Position numbers and translations under genes: made by a program
UHGV virus genome: UHGV-0164982
Direction: 5' to 3' (one strand)
DNA from: a virus
DNA: 64,000 nt
Shown: one piece after another, positions 1-53,230 of the stretch
Position numbering within the stretch: the first letter of the stretch is position 1
Layout of the letters: each line of letters starts with the position of its first letter
Notes under the pieces: model-generated
What the model was told of the DNA's origin: nothing
The model's input: only the letters and a program-made list of their open reading frames with translations
The model's database searches: none

Positions 1-785
1 TCCAGGGCGCGAGTTGATAGCTGGCTGGTGGCAGATGGCGCGGCAACACCATTTTTTCTGACCCGGCAAAACAGGTAGTTATTCGGATCATCAGCTACAC
101 CAGAGACGGAAATCCATCGCTCGACCAGTTTAGTTACCCCCAGGCTAAGTGCCTTCTCTACACCTGCGGTGCTAACCAGCGTTTTCGTTCTGCCAATATG
201 GATTAACATTCTCCCACCGTCAGTACGTGAGATATCTTTAACCCTGATCCTGGCAATTTCGGCTATACGTAACAGGGTGTTATAAGCAATCCCCAGAAAT
301 GCCAGATTACGTATATCCTGGCAGCGATCGCTATTTTCCATGAGTGAACGAACCTGGTCGAAATCAGTGCGTTCGAACGCTAGAGCCTGTTTTGCACGTT
401 CACCGGCATCAACGTTTTCTTTTCGGATCCGCCGCATAACCAGTGAAACAGCATTGCTGTCACTTGGTCGTGGCAGCCCGGACCGACGATGAAGCATGTT
501 TAGCTGGCCCAAATGTTGCTGGATAGTTTTTACTGCCAGACCGCGCGCCTGAAGATATAGAAGATAATCGCGAACATCTTCAGGTTCTGCGGGAAACCAT
601 TTCCGGTTATTCAACTTGCACCATGCCGCCCACGACCGGCAAACGGACAGAAGCATTTTCCAGGTATGCTCAGAAAACGCCTGGCGATCCCTGAACATGT
701 CCATCAGGTTCTTGCGAACCTCATCACTCGTTGCATCGACCGGTAATGCAGGCAAATTTTGGTGTACGGTCAGTAAATTGGACAT
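1..785 (-). CDS. cre: Cre tyrosine recombinase, partial (C-terminal part runs off the window start)
   Basis: Minus-strand translation from ATG at 783-785 reads MSNLLTVHQNLPALPVDATSDEVRKNLMDMFRDRQAFSEHTWKML..., recognised as P1 Cre; no stop before position 1. Confidence 0.95.
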   Translation of the reverse strand, partial: MSNLLTVHQNLPALPVDATSDEVRKNLMDMFRDRQAFSEHTWKMLLSVCRSWAAWCKLNNRKWFPAEPEDVRDYLLYLQARGLAVKTIQQHLGQLNMLHRRSGLPRPSDSNAVSLVMRRIRKENVDAGERAKQALAFERTDFDQVRSLMENSDRCQDIRNLAFLGIAYNTLLRIAEIARIRVKDISRTDGGRMLIHIGRTKTLVSTAGVEKALSLGVTKLVERWISVSGVADDPNNYLFCRVRKNGVAAPSATSQLSTRAL

Positions 786-792
786 TTAACAC

Positions 793-1014
793 TCAGATAA
801 TGGTTTTAAGTAAAGTGTACAGGATCGGCTCTGCCTTTACCTGTTTATGGTTCTCGTCATAGAAACGCCAGCGACCGCGCGTGCGTTCTATTTTCTCTTC
901 ACCGCGCGATAATGACAGTTGGCAACTATCACGATCAAACCCTTTTGCCCGCCAGTAACCACGGTTTTTCTCAAGCTCAAGATGAGTGGACACTTTAGCA
1001 GTTGAATATCCCAT
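793..1014 (-). CDS. hypothetical 73-aa basic protein between loxP and cre
   Basis: Six-frame ORF only; sits where the cre promoters are expected; GATC cluster at 1112-1184 and a 17-bp imperfect inverted repeat at 1046-1100 lie upstream. Confidence 0.25.
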   Translation of the reverse strand: MGYSTAKVSTHLELEKNRGYWRAKGFDRDSCQLSLSRGEEKIERTRGRWRFYDENHKQVKAEPILYTLLKTII

Positions 1015-1203
1015 TTTTCACCTCTGATTGATTGGTGGTGCTAAGTGCGCTACGCGAAATCTGTAGGACTAACACCGCCAATTTTTCACAGATTTTACGT
1101 AGCGCAACCTTGATCAAATGATCAAGTGGTCACTATTTGACCTGCTAAGGTATTGAACTGTATGGATTTACAGGTAAATTGATCATATTCAATAACCCTT
1201 AAT

Positions 1204-1938: not shown

Positions 1939-2790
1939 ATGATAAATTATGTCTACGGCGAACAACTGTACCAGGAGTTCGTCAGCTTCAGGGATCTCTT
2001 TCTAAAAAAAGCTGTTGCACGCGCCCAACACGTTGATACAGCCAGCGACGGTCGTCCTGTACGCCCGGTTGTCGTTCTACCGTTCAAAGAAACTGACAGC
2101 ATTCAGGCTGAAATTGATAAATGGACTTTAATGGCGCGGGAACTGGAACAGTACCCAGACCTCAATATCCCAAAGACTATTTTATATCCAGTGCCTAACA
2201 TCCTTCGCGGTGTGCGCAAGGTTACAACTTATCAGACAGAAGCTGTGAACAGCGTCAACATGACCGCTGGCCGCATTATTCATCTGATTGATAAGGACAT
2301 TCGCATCCAAAAAAGCGCGGGGATCAATGAGCACAGTGCGAAATACATAGAGAACCTGGAAGCAACAAAAGAGCTAATGAGGCAGTACCCGGAGGATGAA
2401 AAATTCCGTATGCGCGTACACGGCTTTAGCGAAACAATGCTGCGCGTCCACTACATTTCCAGTAGCCCTAACTACAATGATGGTAAATCAGTTAGTTACC
2501 ATGTGCCACTGTGTGGCGTGTTTATCTGCGATGAAACTCTCCGTGATGGAATTATCATCAACGGTGAATTCGAAAAAGCAAAATTTAGCCTTTATGACTC
2601 CATAGAACCGATCATCTGCGACCGCTGGCCGCAAGCAAAAATATATCGCCTGGCAGATATTGAAAATGTAAAAAAACAAATTGCCATCACTCGCGAAGAG
2701 AAAAAGGTTAAGTCAGCCGCATCAGTTACGCGCAGCCGTAAAACCAAGAAGGGGCAGCCAGTAAACGACAACCCCGAAAGCGCGCAATAA
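1939..2790 (+). CDS. c1: C1 repressor of lysis
   Basis: 283-aa product MINYVYGEQLYQEFVSFRDLFLKK... recognised as P1 C1. Confidence 0.95.
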   Translation: MINYVYGEQLYQEFVSFRDLFLKKAVARAQHVDTASDGRPVRPVVVLPFKETDSIQAEIDKWTLMARELEQYPDLNIPKTILYPVPNILRGVRKVTTYQTEAVNSVNMTAGRIIHLIDKDIRIQKSAGINEHSAKYIENLEATKELMRQYPEDEKFRMRVHGFSETMLRVHYISSSPNYNDGKSVSYHVPLCGVFICDETLRDGIIINGEFEKAKFSLYDSIEPIICDRWPQAKIYRLADIENVKKQIAITREEKKVKSAASVTRSRKTKKGQPVNDNPESAQ

Positions 2791-2793
2791 ATT

Positions 2794-2815
2794 ATGCCCG
2801 GCATCAACCGGGCAT
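2794..2815. terminator. hairpin between convergent c1 and ant-like gene
   Basis: ATGCCCGG-CATCAA-CCGGGCAT stem-loop in the 32-bp gap between the two stop codons. Confidence 0.45.
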
Positions 2816-2822
2816 TCTTCCA

Positions 2823-3938
2823 TTATTCAGCCGCCACCGGTTTTAACAAGCCAGCATCGAGCAGTTTACGCGTCAACCACTGCTGGCCTTTACCCGTTAA
2901 TTGAGGCGTCAACCGTATCTGGTAGCCATCTTCATCATCCAGCACCACTTCTTTCACCGTGAAATACCCGGCGTTGATGTATTGCTGGAGCGGTACATTT
3001 TTACGCCCGCCGGACGCAATCAGGATGCCGTTCTCCCGTAACCAGGCAAACAGCGCGTTTTGCTTAAGTCCAACAACCTTTGCAAAATTCCCAATCAGGA
3101 TCCCTTTAGCTACTGATACCCGGTCGGCAAAATCGACTTTAGGAGCGGCGGCCACCAGCTGCTGATTTAGCTGGTGGGCTTTCTGTTCCAGAAGCTGCTT
3201 TTGTTCAGCCAGTTCGGCAGCCAGGCGCAGAGCTTCTGGAAGCGTCTGGGGGATTGCGATCGGTTGCTGTTCTTTTTGTCGGAAGTAGCTGTCTTCCAGT
3301 TTTTCAAAGAATGCCCATGCCTGATCGGTTTCGAGCATTTTAGCGTGACGGGCAGCTCCTCGTTCTGTCCAGAGGATGAGAGAGCGCGCTTTGGGGGAGA
3401 CTGGATTTTGTGAGTAGTTTAAAGCTACCCGCAAATTTTTCAGCTCATCGCCAATAACCTTGAAAAAGTGCTTCGCTTCAACAAAGCGTACTTTGTTCTC
3501 ATGATGATTCTGGCGAATGCGAATCGCTTCTGTACCATACCCCTTAGCAAGAGTTTCGGTTGTTACGACACGCACTCCCTGCCACTCCAGAACGGGAATT
3601 TCATCCGGCTGATTCTGAACAACCACCAGTTCCGATTCCTGAACTGAAGGTGCATAAATTTTTTCTGATTTAACGTTAGTTGCTTTCATTCTGTGTGCCT
3701 CCTTGCGTGCTTCGGCTGCGACGGTTGCGTAATTCAGATGACCCTGTTCGAGCAGGTATTCACGGATATCGGTTAGCAGAATGCGGTGAACCGCGTGTTT
3801 GTCCTTTCTCCGGTAAAGTTGTTTGGTGATCATGAAGTAGTTGGCAATAACGCCAGGTATATCCCTGGTACTGATACAGGCAGTGTGCTGTTCAATTGCC
3901 TCGATCATCTCTTCACGGGTGACTAATGACGTTCTCAT
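2823..3938 (-). CDS. antirepressor-like protein (KilA-C/ANT C-terminal domain), paralog of the ImmI Ant at 50835-51878
   Basis: 371 aa; C-terminal ~150 aa near-identical to ORF 50835-51878 (PQTLPEALRLAAELAEQK...GKGQQWLTRKLLDAGLLKPVA); N-terminus also alignable. Confidence 0.8.
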   Translation of the reverse strand: MRTSLVTREEMIEAIEQHTACISTRDIPGVIANYFMITKQLYRRKDKHAVHRILLTDIREYLLEQGHLNYATVAAEARKEAHRMKATNVKSEKIYAPSVQESELVVVQNQPDEIPVLEWQGVRVVTTETLAKGYGTEAIRIRQNHHENKVRFVEAKHFFKVIGDELKNLRVALNYSQNPVSPKARSLILWTERGAARHAKMLETDQAWAFFEKLEDSYFRQKEQQPIAIPQTLPEALRLAAELAEQKQLLEQKAHQLNQQLVAAAPKVDFADRVSVAKGILIGNFAKVVGLKQNALFAWLRENGILIASGGRKNVPLQQYINAGYFTVKEVVLDDEDGYQIRLTPQLTGKGQQWLTRKLLDAGLLKPVAAE

Positions 3939-4156
3939 AGTCCCTCCTGAGCAGAAGCGTTAACAGGGAGGCACCAGTAACTGAGAGAATTGCGTGAATC
4001 AGTGGAAAAACGGGCAGAGAAAATACATGGGGCGTCAGGAAGCTGAGAACGGGCCTCATCTTCTGTCGGTGCAATAACGAAATGATAGTGACGTTTTTGG
4101 CAGGAGTAAAAGCGCCAGATAAATTCAGGATGAATTAGGGTAGGGACAGTAGCCAT
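3935..4156 (-). CDS. Icd-like small protein, 4-nt overlap with downstream ant-like gene
   Basis: 73 aa, PEFIWRFYSC..HYHFVIA.TEDEARSQLPD motif shared with ORF 51875-52096; ATGA-type coupling to the ant-like start. Confidence 0.7.
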   Translation of the reverse strand: MATVPTLIHPEFIWRFYSCQKRHYHFVIAPTEDEARSQLPDAPCIFSARFSTDSRNSLSYWCLPVNASAQEGL

Positions 4157-4495
4157 AATGGCAGCCTCCTTTGACTAAGTTAAGGAGCTACCGCGTGAGG
4201 TCTCAATCTCAATGGCGGTAGCACTGACTGGGTTGAGACTACCGGCGTCAAAGGGAACCGGCCTGCCTTTCGGCAGCCCAGCCAGCACTACCATTGATTT
4301 CGGAGCTAAACGCTACGTATGGCTGTGCGATGGCATGACACAAAAAAAGACGCTTTCGGCGTCTGTGTCGCCTTTGACATTATCCGGGGTCTCAATCCCG
4401 GCACCCGTTTTACTGAGGTGCCTGATAAGCATAAACCGAAAATGCCTCAAGGCGCAAGAGGTCAGGTTCAATGTAACATCGGTAGTTAAAAAACA
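4157..4495 (-). ncRNA. leader of second icd-ant cassette, candidate c4-like antisense RNA region
   Basis: ORF-free 340-nt leader between a C1 operator-like site and icd-like start, by analogy with the ImmI c4 arrangement; no primary-sequence match to the other leader seen by eye. Confidence 0.25.
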
Positions 4496-4512
4496 CAATT
4501 TATTAGAGCAAA
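4496..4512 (-). promoter_or_regulatory. C1 operator-like site upstream of second icd-ant cassette
   Basis: CAATTTATTAGAGCAAA, 15/17 to reverse consensus. Confidence 0.65.
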
Positions 4513-4515
4513 TAT

Positions 4516-6000
4516 TCATTCATTAAGCCATGCCAGAGCTTCATCAACCTGCGCTTCGTCTTCGACGCTAAGCACTTCATCTTGGGGAACATAGTTCGCC
4601 AACATAGCGAAACAATATGTATCCCAATGGTCCGGTGAGTGCAGGTTGAGTTTTTTCTTCATATCCTCCTTACTCATCACCTTCCATTGACCTGCGGAAT
4701 TTATCCCGACCGGTATCTTTGATGCTTCCTCTATAGTCGCAGCCCCCTTATCAAGCCGCATACGCCCTGATTTTACAGCTTCTGCCGCCTGAATATTCGC
4801 GAAAGCGCGCATATCGAAATAAAGGCTTTTATCTTCACGGCTGTGCATCTTTTTACCCCAGCGGATACGCTGGACGGTAATACCATAGCGTTCGTACATC
4901 AGATCAGCCGTCGATTTCCCCAAGCCATCGCCATCAATAGCTATGGTTATGTTCGGGAACCGTTCTGGGTTACATTCTGCGAAAATCTTGGCGGCTAACT
5001 GCGTTTCTGTAACGTCTGTGTATTCCAGCATACGATAGTTGATTACACGGCGTTTATTTCGCTGGCCGGACACCATCATGATATTAATAACGGACTTATC
5101 TCGCCCTGTGCCACCAGCAACGTCAACACATGCAACCCAGCCCCATCCTTTGGCAATCTTGACCTTTCGCCGCGTCGCCCGCTCAACCTCATCACGACCA
5201 AGAAGAAAGCCATCTTGCGATTTGGGGAATTCACCACGTACTTTGATCATGTACATGGGGTTATCACGACCGCCATACTCCGCAAGTTTTGCTCGTATAA
5301 ATTTTGCATCTACAAGCGGAGATTCTTCACTATTCAGTATTATCGCAGTAAACAATCCATCAGGATTTCCCGGGCGAATAGCTAGTCTGTGGTGTGAATC
5401 GTAGAAATAGCCTGAAGGTCGCGTAGGCTGGGAAAGAAGCAGAATACGGTTATCCTTACCGGTCAGCGCACCTGTTATCACACTGAATGCTTTATCACTC
5501 ACACCCGACGCTTCGTCGATGATATACAAGAGATGATCGGCGTGTTCACCAGCCAACGCCTCCTCATTTCCGGGGCGACAGGACTTTATCAATATTGTCC
5601 AAACACCCTTGCCAGTCACCTCAAAAAAAGACGTTTCTGTAAGAATGAAATACTTCGACAACCACGGGAATCTGCTAACAGCAGTAGCCCAATTGCTCTT
5701 TATGTATTTGAAAATACCATCAAGGACTTGCTGTCTTTTGTTAGCGACCAGAATGACGCGAGCGCCGGGGAAAAACATGATGAAGAGTATTGCAATGATA
5801 CTCGTCATATCCGATTTACCAGTACCATGGCCGGAGGTCACACTTGTCCAACTGCCGTCCTGCTGCGTGGACTCAATGATCTCATCCTGCTGCCAGGTTG
5901 GTGTCTTCCCAAACAACACATCAGCGGCCGCAATCCAGTCATAACGATATAGCGCCACCAGCTCGCGCCAACGTGGGTCCGTTACGCAACTTCTGGCCAT
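4516..6000 (-). CDS. pacB: terminase large subunit PacB
   Basis: 494 aa; size and position immediately downstream of pacA; terminase-like ATPase/nuclease architecture. Confidence 0.85.
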
Positions 6001-7193
6001 TAATCATCATCCCCGTACAGTTTGCGGGTAACTTCTTCGTCTTCCTCCTCGTCTTCGTCCAGATCCTGTTCAAGCCATGCTTCGTTTGATATGCCTTCCG
6101 CATCGACATCACCATAACCACCTGTATCGACGATATCGGCAATTTCTTCTCTACGATGCTCAATCCACAATGCGGCATCAGCGCGGCGGCTGGCGGCCCG
6201 TTCTCGCGCGATTTTATCCAGATCTTCAAGTGATGGAGCGCCAGATGCTGTTTGGTTTTCCTCATCATCGGTATTGGTCTTAGGAGCACGCAGATCGGCT
6301 TTGATTTGCTCCAGCATCAGGGGCGGCACTTTCCCTCCATGCGCCTCGATGAATTCAGCCGCTTCCAGCACTGACCAGTTATTTTCACGCTTTCGTTCGT
6401 ATGCCAGCTTAACAATGCCAGCTTGCCCCATAGACAAAGCGTGCTTTTCCGCCTCCCGGCTTTCTTTTCGATAGTTATTCCGGATGCTGTAAATGGTGTT
6501 GATCAGGCTGCTTATCTGCGCGGAACAGCTGTTTAGCATGCTCGCGATACGGTATTCAGGCGGAGTACCTTCATCATCGTCTTTTTGCTGATCGCGCATT
6601 TCCTGCACCAGGCGAATACACGTATCCCTGGCGTTCTCCAGCATAAGGAGATGAGAAAGAGACTTTTCAAGAAGAGTGGTTTCCAGAACATCGGCCCCGG
6701 ACCGACGCAACATAGCGCGCGCGGCCTTCCGCGCTTCAACGTTATCTATCAGGTAATCGCCAGCTTCGAATTCAAAGCGTTCACCATCATCATCCAGGGT
6801 GTCGCGTTCCAGGCGATCACGTAAGGTCCGGTGGGCGCGGGTGATCACGTCATGATCATCTGAACGATCATTTATGCGCTTATTTTGGCGCTTCGCATTC
6901 TCGACTGCGGCACTGACAACGGCATTAACTCTCTGTTTTTCCGCTATTTCAGCCGCAATATGATCACCTGCATGTTGATCATTAGAGTGATCAATGATCA
7001 TGCTTTTTAGTGGCTTCCTGACTGGCTTATTTGGCTTGCGGCTGTCCGCAGTCCTGGTGTCTTCTTTGAAGGCACGGAGATAACGACGTGCGGTATTAGG
7101 GTTAAGATTAAACTCGGCGGCATACTGTGCGATGGTGTAACCACCATCTCGCGCCAGGCGAGCAAAATTCTTTTTGTGATCGTCCCAGGTCAC
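6000..7193 (-). CDS. pacA: terminase small subunit PacA (contains pac site)
   Basis: 397 aa, acidic C-terminus; clusters of TGATCA hexamers inside the 5-prime part of the gene. Confidence 0.85.
6815..7002. other. pac: pac packaging site (Dam-methylatable hexamer clusters flanking the cleavage region)
   Basis: GATC at 6815, 6843, 6854, 6866 and four TGATCA at 6961-7002. Confidence 0.7.
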
Positions 7194-48361: not shown

Positions 48362-48517
48362 TTACCTTTCAGATTCGTAGGCTGTGAAGACAGTGACCTC
48401 CGTCTGGCCGGTTCGGATTCGTACCTCGCAGAGGTCTTTCCTCGTTACCAGTGCCGTCACAATGACGGTTAAACAGATGACGATCAGAGCGATTAACATC
48501 GCTTTTTGCTGCTTCAT
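48362..48517 (-). CDS. hok: Hok/Gef-family type I toxin
   Basis: MKQQKAMLIALIVICLTVIVTALVTRKDLCEVRIRTGQTEVTVFTAYESER, hand-translated; below ORF-track cutoff. Confidence 0.85.
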   Translation of the reverse strand: MKQQKAMLIALIVICLTVIVTALVTRKDLCEVRIRTGQTEVTVFTAYESER

Positions 48518-48575
48518 AGCCTGCTTCTCCTTGACCTTTTGGTCGGTAAGAGGCTAATCTACGTATGCTAAGCAT
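48369..48575 (-). CDS. mok: Mok-like overlapping reading frame
   Basis: 68-aa ORF overlapping hok in another frame, starting upstream. Confidence 0.55.
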   Translation of the reverse strand: MLSIRRLASYRPKGQGEAGYEAAKSDVNRSDRHLFNRHCDGTGNEERPLRGTNPNRPDGGHCLHSLRI

Positions 48576-48698
48576 AGATATGGCCTCAGATTAATGTTAA
48601 GCGTCTTGCAGGACGCGTAATGTTATCTGGGGCTTTCTTCTATCTGCTTTTCGGGTAATGCCTGAAGCAGATAGCCTCAAGCACCCGCAACGATTGTA

Positions 48699-50834: not shown

Positions 50835-51878
50835 TTAACCTATTGCTACTGGTTTTAACAAACCAGCATCAAGTAGCTTGCGAGTTAACCACTGCTGGCC
50901 TTTACCCGTTAATTGGGGCGTCAGCCGTATCTGGTAGCCATTTTCATCATCCAGCACCACTTCTTTCACCGTGAAATACCCGGCGTTGATGTACTGTTGG
51001 CGCGGTACGTTTTTGCGCGCACCAAAAGCCATGAGAATGCCGTTCTGGCGCAACCATGAGAAAAGGGCGTTTTGCTTAAGTCCAACGACCTTTGCAAAGT
51101 TCCCGATCAGGATTCCATTGGCCACTGATACCCGGTCGGCAAAATCGACTTTAGGGGCTGCGGCCACCAGCTGTTGTTCCAGCTGCATTTTCTGTTCTGC
51201 CAACTCGGCAGCCAGGCGTAGAGCTTCTGGTAATGTTTGGGGGATCGATGGGGCAGGGGAGTTTGCCTGCTGCAATTCTTCCAGTTTGTCGATCAGCGAA
51301 CGGCGGACGGCTTTTGATTCGCGTGCGGCGACTCGCAGGGCTTGTTTGTAGGTCATGGTTATGACAACCATAGGCGTACCGCCACCTGGCGGCACGGTTG
51401 CACTTTTTGTGTAACCGTCCTCACCTTCTAATTCGTCGAGTATTTTTTCGATGAATTTGTTGTTCCGAACCTCTGGTTCCCCACATAACTTACGCGCTTC
51501 ATTGACCATCTTTAACAGTGTCAGGCTGTCGATTGTGTCTCCGGTGTTGGGGATGATATTCACGGCTGGTGCTGGCGTAGCTGACGTAACAGGTGCTGTT
51601 TTTTCAACATTCAAATTATTACCGGTCATTCTATGTGCCTCCTTTCTCATTTCTGCTGCCACTGTTGCGTAACGTAGACGTCCTTGTTCAATCAAATAAT
51701 CCCTGATCTCGGCTATCAGTAGCTTGTTGATCACAGCCTTATCTGTTCGGGTATAAAAACGTCTGGTTATCATGAAATAGTTGGCAATTGCGCCGGGGAT
51801 CTCCCGTGTCGGCATACAGGCAGTATGCAGGGCGATCGCTTCGGCTATGTCATTACGGGTGACGAGAGGTTTTTTCAT
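50835..51878 (-). CDS. ant: antirepressor Ant (ImmI)
   Basis: 347 aa; coupled to upstream icd; canonical position next to kilA-repL. Confidence 0.8.
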   Translation of the reverse strand: MKKPLVTRNDIAEAIALHTACMPTREIPGAIANYFMITRRFYTRTDKAVINKLLIAEIRDYLIEQGRLRYATVAAEMRKEAHRMTGNNLNVEKTAPVTSATPAPAVNIIPNTGDTIDSLTLLKMVNEARKLCGEPEVRNNKFIEKILDELEGEDGYTKSATVPPGGGTPMVVITMTYKQALRVAARESKAVRRSLIDKLEELQQANSPAPSIPQTLPEALRLAAELAEQKMQLEQQLVAAAPKVDFADRVSVANGILIGNFAKVVGLKQNALFSWLRQNGILMAFGARKNVPRQQYINAGYFTVKEVVLDDENGYQIRLTPQLTGKGQQWLTRKLLDAGLLKPVAIG

Positions 51879-52096
51879 AAACCCCCCTGAACGTCGGCAG
51901 AGAAGGGGAGGCTCCAGTAACTAAGTGAATTGCGCGAGTTAGTTGAAAAACGGGCAGTAAAAATGCAGGGGCCGTCAGGCAATTGAGAGCGTGCTTCGTC
52001 TTCTGTTGCTGCGATAACGAAGTGATAGTGGTGTTTTTTACAGGAATAGAAACGCCAGATGAATTCTGGGCGTGCGCAAGGATTGGCATTAACCAT
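51875..52096 (-). CDS. icd: Icd
   Basis: 73 aa, 4-nt overlap with ant start. Confidence 0.75.
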   Translation of the reverse strand: MVNANPCARPEFIWRFYSCKKHHYHFVIAATEDEARSQLPDGPCIFTARFSTNSRNSLSYWSLPFSADVQGGL

Positions 52097-52410
52097 AGTT
52101 ACGGCCTCACAATCAGGTTTAACAACCTGCTACCCGCTGTCAAACAGGTGGCAGGACGTGACAGGGTTGACAGACTGGCGATTGTGAAACCAGCAGGCCG
52201 AAGCCTCCCCATCACGCCCCACCATAATTTGGGCGTAACGCGGTTTAACGGACACAAAAATACCGCAATATCGGAAATCTGCGGTTGTCCGCACAATCAT
52301 TCAGGCTGTCAAACCTGGTCGCAGAATTTGCTACGACGGCGAAACTATAAGCCTGAACGATTAAAAGGTCAATATGATGCGAAAAGATAGCATTCGCGAC
52401 TTAAAAATAC
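52097..52410 (-). ncRNA. c4: ImmI leader, expected location of c4 antisense repressor RNA
   Basis: ORF-free leader between operator and icd; placement by analogy with P1 ImmI, RNA ends not determined. Confidence 0.4.
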
Positions 52411-52427
52411 AAATTTATTAGAGCAGG
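52411..52427 (-). promoter_or_regulatory. C1 operator-like site for ImmI
   Basis: AAATTTATTAGAGCAGG, 15/17. Confidence 0.65.
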
Positions 52428-52708: not shown

Positions 52709-53230
52709 ATGATTCTTATGTCTAAAAAGTATACTTTATGCGCTCTTGTTGTATCTGCAATTCTTCTTTCTGGGTGTCAATCTAGCGGTGCTGATTATGC
52801 TGCCGATGTTTATGATACCGCTCAATTGAATTCGAAGCAGGAAACAAAGACAGTCAATATTATCTCTGTGCTTCCAGCTAAAGTGAAAGTTGATAATAAA
52901 GCTAATAAAGAAGCGGCACAGACATTTGGTGCGGTACTGGGAGCTGTTGCTGGGGGCGTTGCCGGTTATAATGTTAAAGGCACATCGACACTGGGTGCTG
53001 TAGCTGGCGGTACTGGTGGTGCGGCTCTTGGTGCAGCGGCTGGTTCTTTGGTTAGTGATAAAACAATTGTTGAAGGTGTTTCACTGACTTATAAAGAAGG
53101 AACTAAGGTGTTCACTTCAACTCAAGTTGGTAAAGCATGCCAGTTTACAACGGGGCTTGCTGTGCTTATTTCAACTAAAGATAATGAAACTCGAATTCAG
53201 CCAAATGCTACTTGTCCAGAAAAGAAATAA
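52709..53230 (+). CDS. glycine-zipper lipoprotein (AT-rich cargo)
   Basis: Lipobox LLSGC; Gly-rich GAVLGAVAGGVAGY and GAVAGGTGGAALGAAAG segments. Confidence 0.6.
   Translation: MILMSKKYTLCALVVSAILLSGCQSSGADYAADVYDTAQLNSKQETKTVNIISVLPAKVKVDNKANKEAAQTFGAVLGAVAGGVAGYNVKGTSTLGAVAGGTGGAALGAAAGSLVSDKTIVEGVSLTYKEGTKVFTSTQVGKACQFTTGLAVLISTKDNETRIQPNATCPEKK

Follow-up and report, generated by a model that had tools for sequence, protein, structure and literature searches.

A putative second ImmI-type antirepressor operon with its own antisense RNA specificity between pacB and c1 of a P1-like phage-plasmid

In the 64,000-nucleotide (nt) stretch of virus genome UHGV-0164982 analyzed here (hereafter the window), which represents a P1-like IncY phage-plasmid and is 100% identical to the Escherichia coli plasmid pXJW9B263-2 (NZ_CP067401.1) over the region tested, the genes c1 (1939-2790, plus strand) and pacB (6000..4516, minus strand) of the open reading frame (ORF) list are separated from stop to stop by 1,725 base pairs (bp; 2791-4515), versus 24 bp in phage P1. 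The extra DNA begins directly past the c1 stop codon and finishes 3 nt short of the pacB stop codon, and the features that it contains are all on the minus strand, the same as pacB and the adjacent pacA (7193..6000). As judged from its sequence, this insert is an ImmI-type operon, in other words a known kind of system in which a pair of genes, icd and ant (antirepressor), is controlled by C4- and IsrK-type RNAs, and the window carries it in addition to a canonical ImmI module at the usual site (52427..50835, minus strand). A first-pass annotation had placed between c1 and pacB an Icd-like ORF of 73 amino acids coupled by a 4-nt overlap to an antirepressor gene of 371 amino acids, a gene arrangement that is borne out here. 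It had also supposed that P1 has no ant gene at this position, which proves correct given the 24-bp spacer of P1. Neither P1 nor P7 was found to hold the cassette: what matched in them was the ANT domain of their canonical module or the c1/pacB flanks and nothing else, and the c1-pacB records of P7 and phiW39 likewise matched only the flanks of the query.

The icd-like gene (4156..3935) encodes a protein that matches the NCBIfam model NF033153 (phage_ICD_like) with 49.8 bits for a cut-off of 25, NCBIfam being used here because Pfam has no Icd model, and the divergence from the canonical Icd noted in the first-pass annotation amounts to 73% identity. It overlaps by 4 nt (ATGA) the ant-like gene (3938..2823), identified by Pfam domains and by phrog_63 (“anti-repressor Ant”), which covers the full length of the protein with 437 bits. 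We considered that ant might be a pseudogene, as only a 110-amino-acid fragment of it appears in the PLSDB gene table, and ruled this out on the basis of the current RefSeq record and of the ORF list, which both give an intact 371-amino-acid frame. Residues 1-95 of the Ant protein are about 61-64% identical to P1 Ant1 and to the canonical Ant, and this N-terminal segment was found in 21 of 50,697 phage records, all of them P1-like. By contrast, the central part, of about 115 residues, has been swapped: an ORF6N domain (PF10543, residues 116-201, 69.3 bits versus a gathering score of 27.8) replaces the P1-specific centre and is, at the DNA level, 78-90% identical over 100-250 nt to Ant/ORF6N genes carried by Stx phages and chromosomal prophages. 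The C-terminal ~140 residues, which comprise an ANT/KilAC domain (PF03374, residues 259-360, 110.7 bits versus a gathering score of 25.3), are near-identical to those of P1 and of the canonical copy. The near-identical C-termini that had been reported for the two Ant proteins of the window thus stand, but the simple N-terminal divergence that accompanied them does not, since the first 95 residues are homologous and it is the centre that has been exchanged. Nested in frame within the gene, an Ant2-type start at codon 84 (3689..3687), in which AAGGAGG is followed after 8 nt by ATG, has the same context as its counterparts in the canonical module and the annotated ant2 of P1, so that both an ant1 and an ant2 start are present. 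Past the end of ant, with which c1 converges, a GC-rich inverted repeat (2794..2815) lies inside the inserted segment, 4 nt past the c1 stop codon; called on the minus strand by the terminator scan with a 9-bp stem, it is probably a bidirectional terminator and forms the single hairpin that separates the two genes.

At the pacB end of the insert, the C1 operator-like site that had been proposed at 4496-4512 also withstood scrutiny. This site, TTTGCTCTAATAAATTG (4512..4496), matches the consensus ATTGCTCTAATAAATTT at 15 of 17 positions, aligns with Op51 of the canonical module and is kept at the same place in all the pacB/c1-site loci (58/58), and sites with at most 3 mismatches number 15 in the window versus 0.35 expected by chance. 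Two putative promoters can be recognized next to it. The counterpart of P51a (4498..4470), presumed to be controlled by C1, consists of a -35 element TTGTGT (4498..4493), a 17-nt spacer and a -10 element TACATT (4475..4470); it corresponds by position and alignment to the annotated P1 promoter P2c4/P51a, and its -35 element overlaps the end of the operator just as P51a overlaps Op51. The counterpart of P51b/PisrK (4457..4428), putatively constitutive, consists of TTGCGC (4457..4452), an 18-nt spacer and TATGCT (4433..4428); it aligns column for column with the canonical P51b-type promoter TTGACC-17-TATAGT, is kept in the plasmid prophage D6 and in operator-less related plasmids, and has a predicted +1 (4421) that coincides with the 5' end of an Rfam isrK match. 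As an aside, because the operator begins only 3 nt past the pacB stop codon (window 4513-4518) and the cassette shares its strand with pacAB, late transcription from the pac promoter could enter the leader.

A leader of its own, of 340 nt, had been ascribed to the cassette; such a leader exists, with a corrected length of 356 nt from the operator to the ATG of icd, and holds two RNA genes. The promoter-proximal one is an IsrK-like small RNA (4421..4343; Rfam RF01394, 59.5 bits for a gathering score of 50), inside which lie the sites a1 TTGAGAC (4395..4389), predicted to fold into a hairpin loop, and b1 GTCAAAGG (4378..4371), and which ends in a GC-rich intrinsic terminator found by the terminator scan (hairpin 4364..4348, then seven T). 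Over an alignment of 22 distinct sequences, 100% of the cells in the stems of this RNA are paired. It is followed by a C4-type antisense RNA (4298..4211; Rfam RF01695, 75.4 bits for a gathering score of 45, full model 1-87), with a predicted fold of -45 kcal/mol and an outer stem in which 7 compensatory pairs are seen among relatives; by analogy with the 77-nt C4 of P1, its mature form would span about 4292..4217. In the predicted C4 structure, the element b' CCUUUGAC (4254..4247) occupies the loop of hairpin 2 and the element a' GUCUCAA (4239..4233) the single-stranded linker that follows. The downstream target region (4206..4165) then comprises a2 TTGAGAC (4206..4200), upstream of icd, and b2 GTCAAAGG (4175..4168), which overlaps the Shine-Dalgarno sequence of icd, AAGGAGG (4171..4165). 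RefSeq also places a 39-amino-acid “ash family protein” (WP_001376634.1; 4294-4175, minus strand) wholly over the C4 RNA; it matches no NCBIfam hidden Markov model and probably results from an RNA gene having been miscalled as a protein, an annotation that recurs across hundreds of plasmid records.

The canonical module provides the comparison copy within the same genome. Also on the minus strand, it consists of an Op51-like operator (52427..52411), a c4-a1b1 motif (52350..52298), a C4 RNA (52229..52144), icd (52096..51875) and ant (51878..50835). The C4 RNA of P1, once excised from its leader, pairs with a2/b2, which blocks the translation of icd and hence the expression of ant, while C1 controls one of the two promoters; the annotated P1 sites, TTGACAG for a1/a2 and GTTAGTG(C/A) for b1/b2, are complementary to two exposed stretches of C4. 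The second module of the window displays the same logic, with Watson-Crick complementarity at 7/7 positions of a/a' and 8/8 positions of b/b', for both the upstream (a1/b1) and the downstream (a2/b2) targets. The canonical C4 (a' CUGUCAA, b' CACAAUC) is likewise fully complementary to its own two target pairs, whose sites are a TTGACAG, the P1 allele, and b GATTGTG, the P7 allele, consistently across all three copies; because it combines the a of P1 with the b of P7, the canonical module is neither of P1 nor of P7 type. This combination, found in the canonical leader (52144-52350), also occurs in 10 IMG/VR loci. Between the two modules, complementarity falls to 5/7 for a and 1-2/8 for b, when the same measure gives 5-6/7 and 5/7 between P1 and P7, whose heteroimmunity was reportedly traced by Citron and Schuster in 1990 to differences in c4. 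The two modules of the window are therefore further apart than this heteroimmune pair and should not cross-regulate, and with a/b sites that differ (GAGAC / GTCAAAGG in the second module versus GACAG / GATTGTG in the canonical one), an independent regulation of the two is to be expected. These data confirm that the two leaders encode different antisense RNAs and are not the product of a simple duplication, as had been presumed from their divergence. They also lend support, at the level of sequence, to the suggestion of a second immunity specificity, on the basis of complementarity and of the P1/P7 precedent. The energies of full-length duplexes between C4 and leader RNAs were discarded as a measure of specificity in favor of this element-by-element complementarity: because they ignore intramolecular structure, they did not discriminate.

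If the proposed contacts matter, they should leave a trace among relatives of the leader. We aligned 29 leaders, 22 of them distinct, and found that every cell of every proposed a/b pair is a standard pair, with compensatory changes at 4 of 7 positions in both a1-a' and a'-a2 and at 3 of 8 positions in both b1-b' and b'-b2, whereas only 25-49% of cells were paired in controls where the partner had been slid by 1-3 columns. The same leader recurs with other a or b alleles in D6, RCS47 and several plasmids, and each time all three copies have changed together. Taken as a whole, these patterns suggest that the a/b pairing is under selection. Two scans of IMG/VR, with both Icd proteins, yielded 153 typeable loci. 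All of them (153/153) are fully self-complementary in all four contacts, and they fall into 16 specificity alleles. Five of these alleles belong to the IsrK class and the other 11 to the P1 class, in which two a and six b alleles could form 12 combinations.

On this basis, we consider it likely that the insert is a complete and autonomous second P1-type ImmI operon endowed with an IsrK/D6-class leader, that is, an antirepressor/immunity module under its own C1 and antisense control, and that the cassette is probably in working order. Transcription would proceed from the constitutive promoter (+1 near 4421), with an extra start at the operator-overlapping promoter if C1, which may bind this operator as it does Op51, were absent. 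Most transcripts would end at the IsrK terminator and thus give an RNA of ~79 nt displaying a1 and b1, when read-through transcripts would carry the C4-type RNA, to be processed out as in P1. Through a' and b', this C4 would pair with a2/b2, cover the ribosome-binding site of icd and block its translation, and, via the ATGA coupling (in P1 also via Rho-dependent polarity), the synthesis of Ant1/Ant2-type proteins. Conversely, the short a1/b1 RNA could titrate C4 and turn the module ON, to be compared with IsrK in Salmonella Gifsy-1. The processing of C4, the translational block and the resulting effects on immunity are all modeled on P1 in this scheme. A prophage equipped in this way would be expected to silence the ant of incoming relatives with either specificity, and an infecting phage to express at least one Ant in lysogens without the matching C4, which would amount to a second chance in a foreign lysogen.

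This scheme builds on the comparison with P1 and P7. The order of parts is the same (Op51, P51a/P51b, a1 b1, c4, a2 b2, icd, ant1/ant2), a C1 operator-like site overlaps the first putative promoter and the second is a homologous one, a C4 RNA of family RF01695 faces 7-8-nt target pairs located upstream and over the icd ribosome-binding site, and a 73-amino-acid Icd, an ATGA overlap, a nested Ant2 start and homologous N- and C-terminal segments of Ant are shared. The cassette differs from P1/P7 ImmI in its location at c1/pacB, when the usual site is between sim and kilA-repL, in its a/b specificity, in placing a1/b1 not within a c4-a1b1 motif but within an IsrK-class RNA that ends in a strong intrinsic terminator, in the ORF6N centre of its Ant, and in a leader that is only ~50-60% alignable with the P1 leader beyond the conserved core. 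That leader is much closer to the one of D6 (MF356679; orf83 icd, orf82 antirepressor): from the IsrK start to ~60 nt into icd (window 4095-4422), the DNA is 94-95% identical to the ImmI-like region of D6, with the same a allele. However, D6 has another b allele, 2 nt apart from that of the cassette in each of the three copies (GCAAAAGG versus GTCAAAGG), no C1 operator lies upstream in D6, and the downstream gene encodes a Rha/Roi/KilA-type protein, not a P1-type Ant.

In the isrK-orf45-anrP region of Gifsy-1, compared here through the Rfam model only, the terminator that closes an IsrK-family RNA lets part of the transcription pass into an antirepressor operon (PMC4825925), a processed RNA downstream (STnc1160) occupies the position of C4, and translational coupling links a short ORF to the antirepressor gene that follows it. 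There, however, the short ORF has 45 amino acids and overlaps the processed RNA, whereas the ORF of the window is a 73-amino-acid Icd homolog that follows C4; and the target is a lambdoid-type circuit reached via AntQ, when the module of the window would be under P1 C1. Gifsy-1 IsrK activates in trans the translation of its own read-through mRNA (orf45-anrP) and binds Hfq, a behavior known for Gifsy-1 only (PMC4825925). The antirepressors of Stx and other lambdoid phages (ORF6N with P22AR-C or KilAC) share with the cassette the similarity of the ORF6N centre already mentioned, and many of these genes are preceded by IsrK+C4 leaders, but they have neither the P1-family N-terminal 95 residues nor a C1 operator. 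Finally, the CI RNA of phage P4, with seqA/seqC, belongs to the same Rfam clan as C4 and is also an antisense RNA cut from a leader that pairs with sites on both its sides; in P4, which has no icd/ant, the outcome is the termination of transcription ahead of replication genes. As a matter of fact, the cassette is a mosaic: its leader is of D6 type, its operator and first promoter resemble P1 Op51/P51a, and the centre of its Ant is close to the ORF6N of Stx-phage antirepressors between N- and C-terminal segments of P1 type. The GC content of the insert gives no sign of a foreign origin, being the same as in the flanks.

Several observations weigh against a second P1-type immunity operon. A strong terminator separates a1/b1 from C4, and the supply of C4 therefore depends on read-through. 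Both sets of promoter hexamers are weak and a generic sigma-70 scan called no promoter in the leader, so that the promoters are proposed from their alignment with annotated P1 promoters. The homologous leader of Gifsy-1 has been interpreted via alternative cis structures and not via a free antisense RNA (PMC4825925). Above all, the centre of the second Ant is ORF6N and not the P1-specific one, such that binding to C1 is not assured; an action of this Ant on C1 would be the weakest link of the proposal. Accepting the RNA control as proposed, one may then imagine that the protein is aimed at a repressor other than C1, or at DNA, and that the cassette, instead of serving P1 immunity, mediates cross-talk with lambdoid prophages resident in the host or has some other regulatory function. 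Such a redirected target would fit the loss of the P1-specific centre in favor of ~115 residues that are ORF6N as in the antirepressors of Stx and other lambdoid phages, with DNA 78-90% identical to their genes and to those of chromosomal prophages; moreover, P1 KilA has the same ANT/KilAC domain and is not known to antagonize C1. We nevertheless hold it to be unlikely, and C1 to be favored as the target, because the N-terminal 95 residues and the nested Ant1/Ant2 starts are features of the P1 family alone, the last ~140 residues hardly differ from those of P1 Ant, a C1 operator has been acquired and kept in 58/58 loci at the pacB/c1 site, and the module is almost confined to c1-bearing plasmids.

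The kinship with P4 raises another question, on a single step of the scheme and otherwise compatible with it: the leader could act like CI/seqA-seqC, its C4-type RNA causing premature termination of transcription in place of a translational block. Besides the shared Rfam clan, the P4 cI region is 76% identical to the leader over 149 nt, and the authors of the IsrK study consider seqA as a structural homolog of IsrK (PMC4825925). This seems to us quite improbable, given that b2 overlaps the Shine-Dalgarno sequence of icd exactly as P1 b2 does and that the coupling of ant to icd has been kept. For P1, Biere, Citron and Schuster are said to have described in 1992 a repression of translation with ensuing polarity. 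Least probable of all, in our opinion, is that the cassette is a selfish or neutral mobile duplicate with no role for the plasmid, silenced by C1 and C4, and that its diversity reflects recombination and drift. Modules do occur at several sites (pacB/c1, kilA-adjacent, on the cre side and around window 28-29 kb) and have a mosaic make-up, with a P1-class leader joined in some of them to a second-type icd/ant, and the insert has the GC content of its flanks. But drift would be expected to break complementarity and reading frames, when none of the loci inspected, those of the four-module contig among them, has a broken icd or ant, the three copies of each specificity element co-vary in 153/153 loci, the operator is kept in 58/58 loci, and at least 43% of c1-bearing plasmids carry the cassette. 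A second ImmI-type operon under C1 and antisense control accordingly remains the reading that we prefer.

With regard to its distribution, the cassette is common and has already been recorded as an “ant insertion.” Phages RCS47 (two records), JL22 and vB_EcoM-673R5 carry it at a coverage of at least 80%, as do, in number, at least 301 of the 702 c1-bearing plasmids of PLSDB (at least 43%); it also occurs in 311 of 5,426 complete E. coli genomes. The RCS47 record annotates its gene as ant, an ant insertion between pacB and c1 has been mentioned without an analysis of its control (Venturini et al. 2019; PMC6906374), and a 2019 paper on D6-like plasmids noted a second c4-icd region. In the literature searched, whose coverage did not extend to the D6 genome paper (Gilcrease and Casjens 2018), we found no treatment of the RNA specificity of the pacB/c1 cassette; its separate specificity and the combinatorial diversity of its alleles thus appear not to have been analyzed in these papers.

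Beyond this single insert, nearly half of the sampled natural P1-like plasmids hold a second module, and some a third or a fourth, each with its own antisense specificity. In IMG/VR, 21 contigs carry more than one module, including one with three and one with four, and the modules checked in these multi-module contigs are all intact (73-amino-acid icd, ATGA overlap, ant of 344-372 amino acids). None of the 28 within-contig pairs of modules shares an allele, in keeping with the operon proposed here; against this, only 5 of these 28 pairs involve the same leader class and the rest compare different classes. The presence of 1-4 intact modules per genome, the reassortment of a and b and the lack of any allele occurring twice in a sampled genome lead us to propose, tentatively and with less confidence than for the operon itself, that P1-like phage-plasmids may carry a combinatorial RNA “immunity code.” According to this conjecture, mobile ImmI-type cassettes with freely reassorting a and b elements would be added mainly at the pacB/c1 site, selection for escaping or resisting the immunity of relatives would favor rare alleles, and the terminated IsrK-like RNA would serve as an anti-antisense switch. 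If the modules work as their anatomy suggests, they would decide which P1-like elements superinfect, induce or exclude one another, and such elements often carry resistance genes in E. coli and Salmonella. They would likewise offer a system in which the diversification of immunity specificity can be read from sequence, with 2-nt changes in three co-varying sites defining alleles, and specificity typing could then join the typing of phage-plasmids. The circuit described in textbooks, with its three parts, comes from two laboratory phages that have one ImmI module each.

A few further observations concern the diversity of these modules and the surroundings of the canonical one. The contig with four modules, IMGVR_UViG_2703718869_000013, is a 97-kb P1-like element whose icd-ant modules (L014, L090, L114 and L163 in our numbering of loci) are all intact and have four different specificities, three being P1-class and one IsrK-class; the contig with three modules is 3300045988_147834 (L071, L086 and L137). 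On the window plasmid itself, a search for a third C4 module elsewhere returned none. Plasmid p1 of E. coli E17 (L009:1161-2570, leader 2780-3140) has an IsrK-class leader and icd at the kilA-adjacent site, followed by a 469-amino-acid Ant that holds both the P1-specific and the ORF6N centres. Loci L075-L090 (e.g., L083:2738-4278 and L090:2740-4288) are chimeras located at other sites, in which the switch from a P1-class leader to a second-type icd/ant occurs early in icd; the downstream flank of L082, L083 and L086 matches window 1-1090, and L090 is flanked by segments matching window ~29.0-29.5 kb and 25.9-27.8 kb. Next to the canonical module, and divergent from its operator, a 173-amino-acid ORF with a lipoprotein-type signal (LSGC; 52709-53230, plus strand) occupies a position like that of P7 upf50.5 and not that of the P1 sim genes. 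Just downstream of repL, an Rfam match to the sok antitoxin RNA (48512-48686, minus strand, 114.9 bits) points to a hok/sok-type killer locus.

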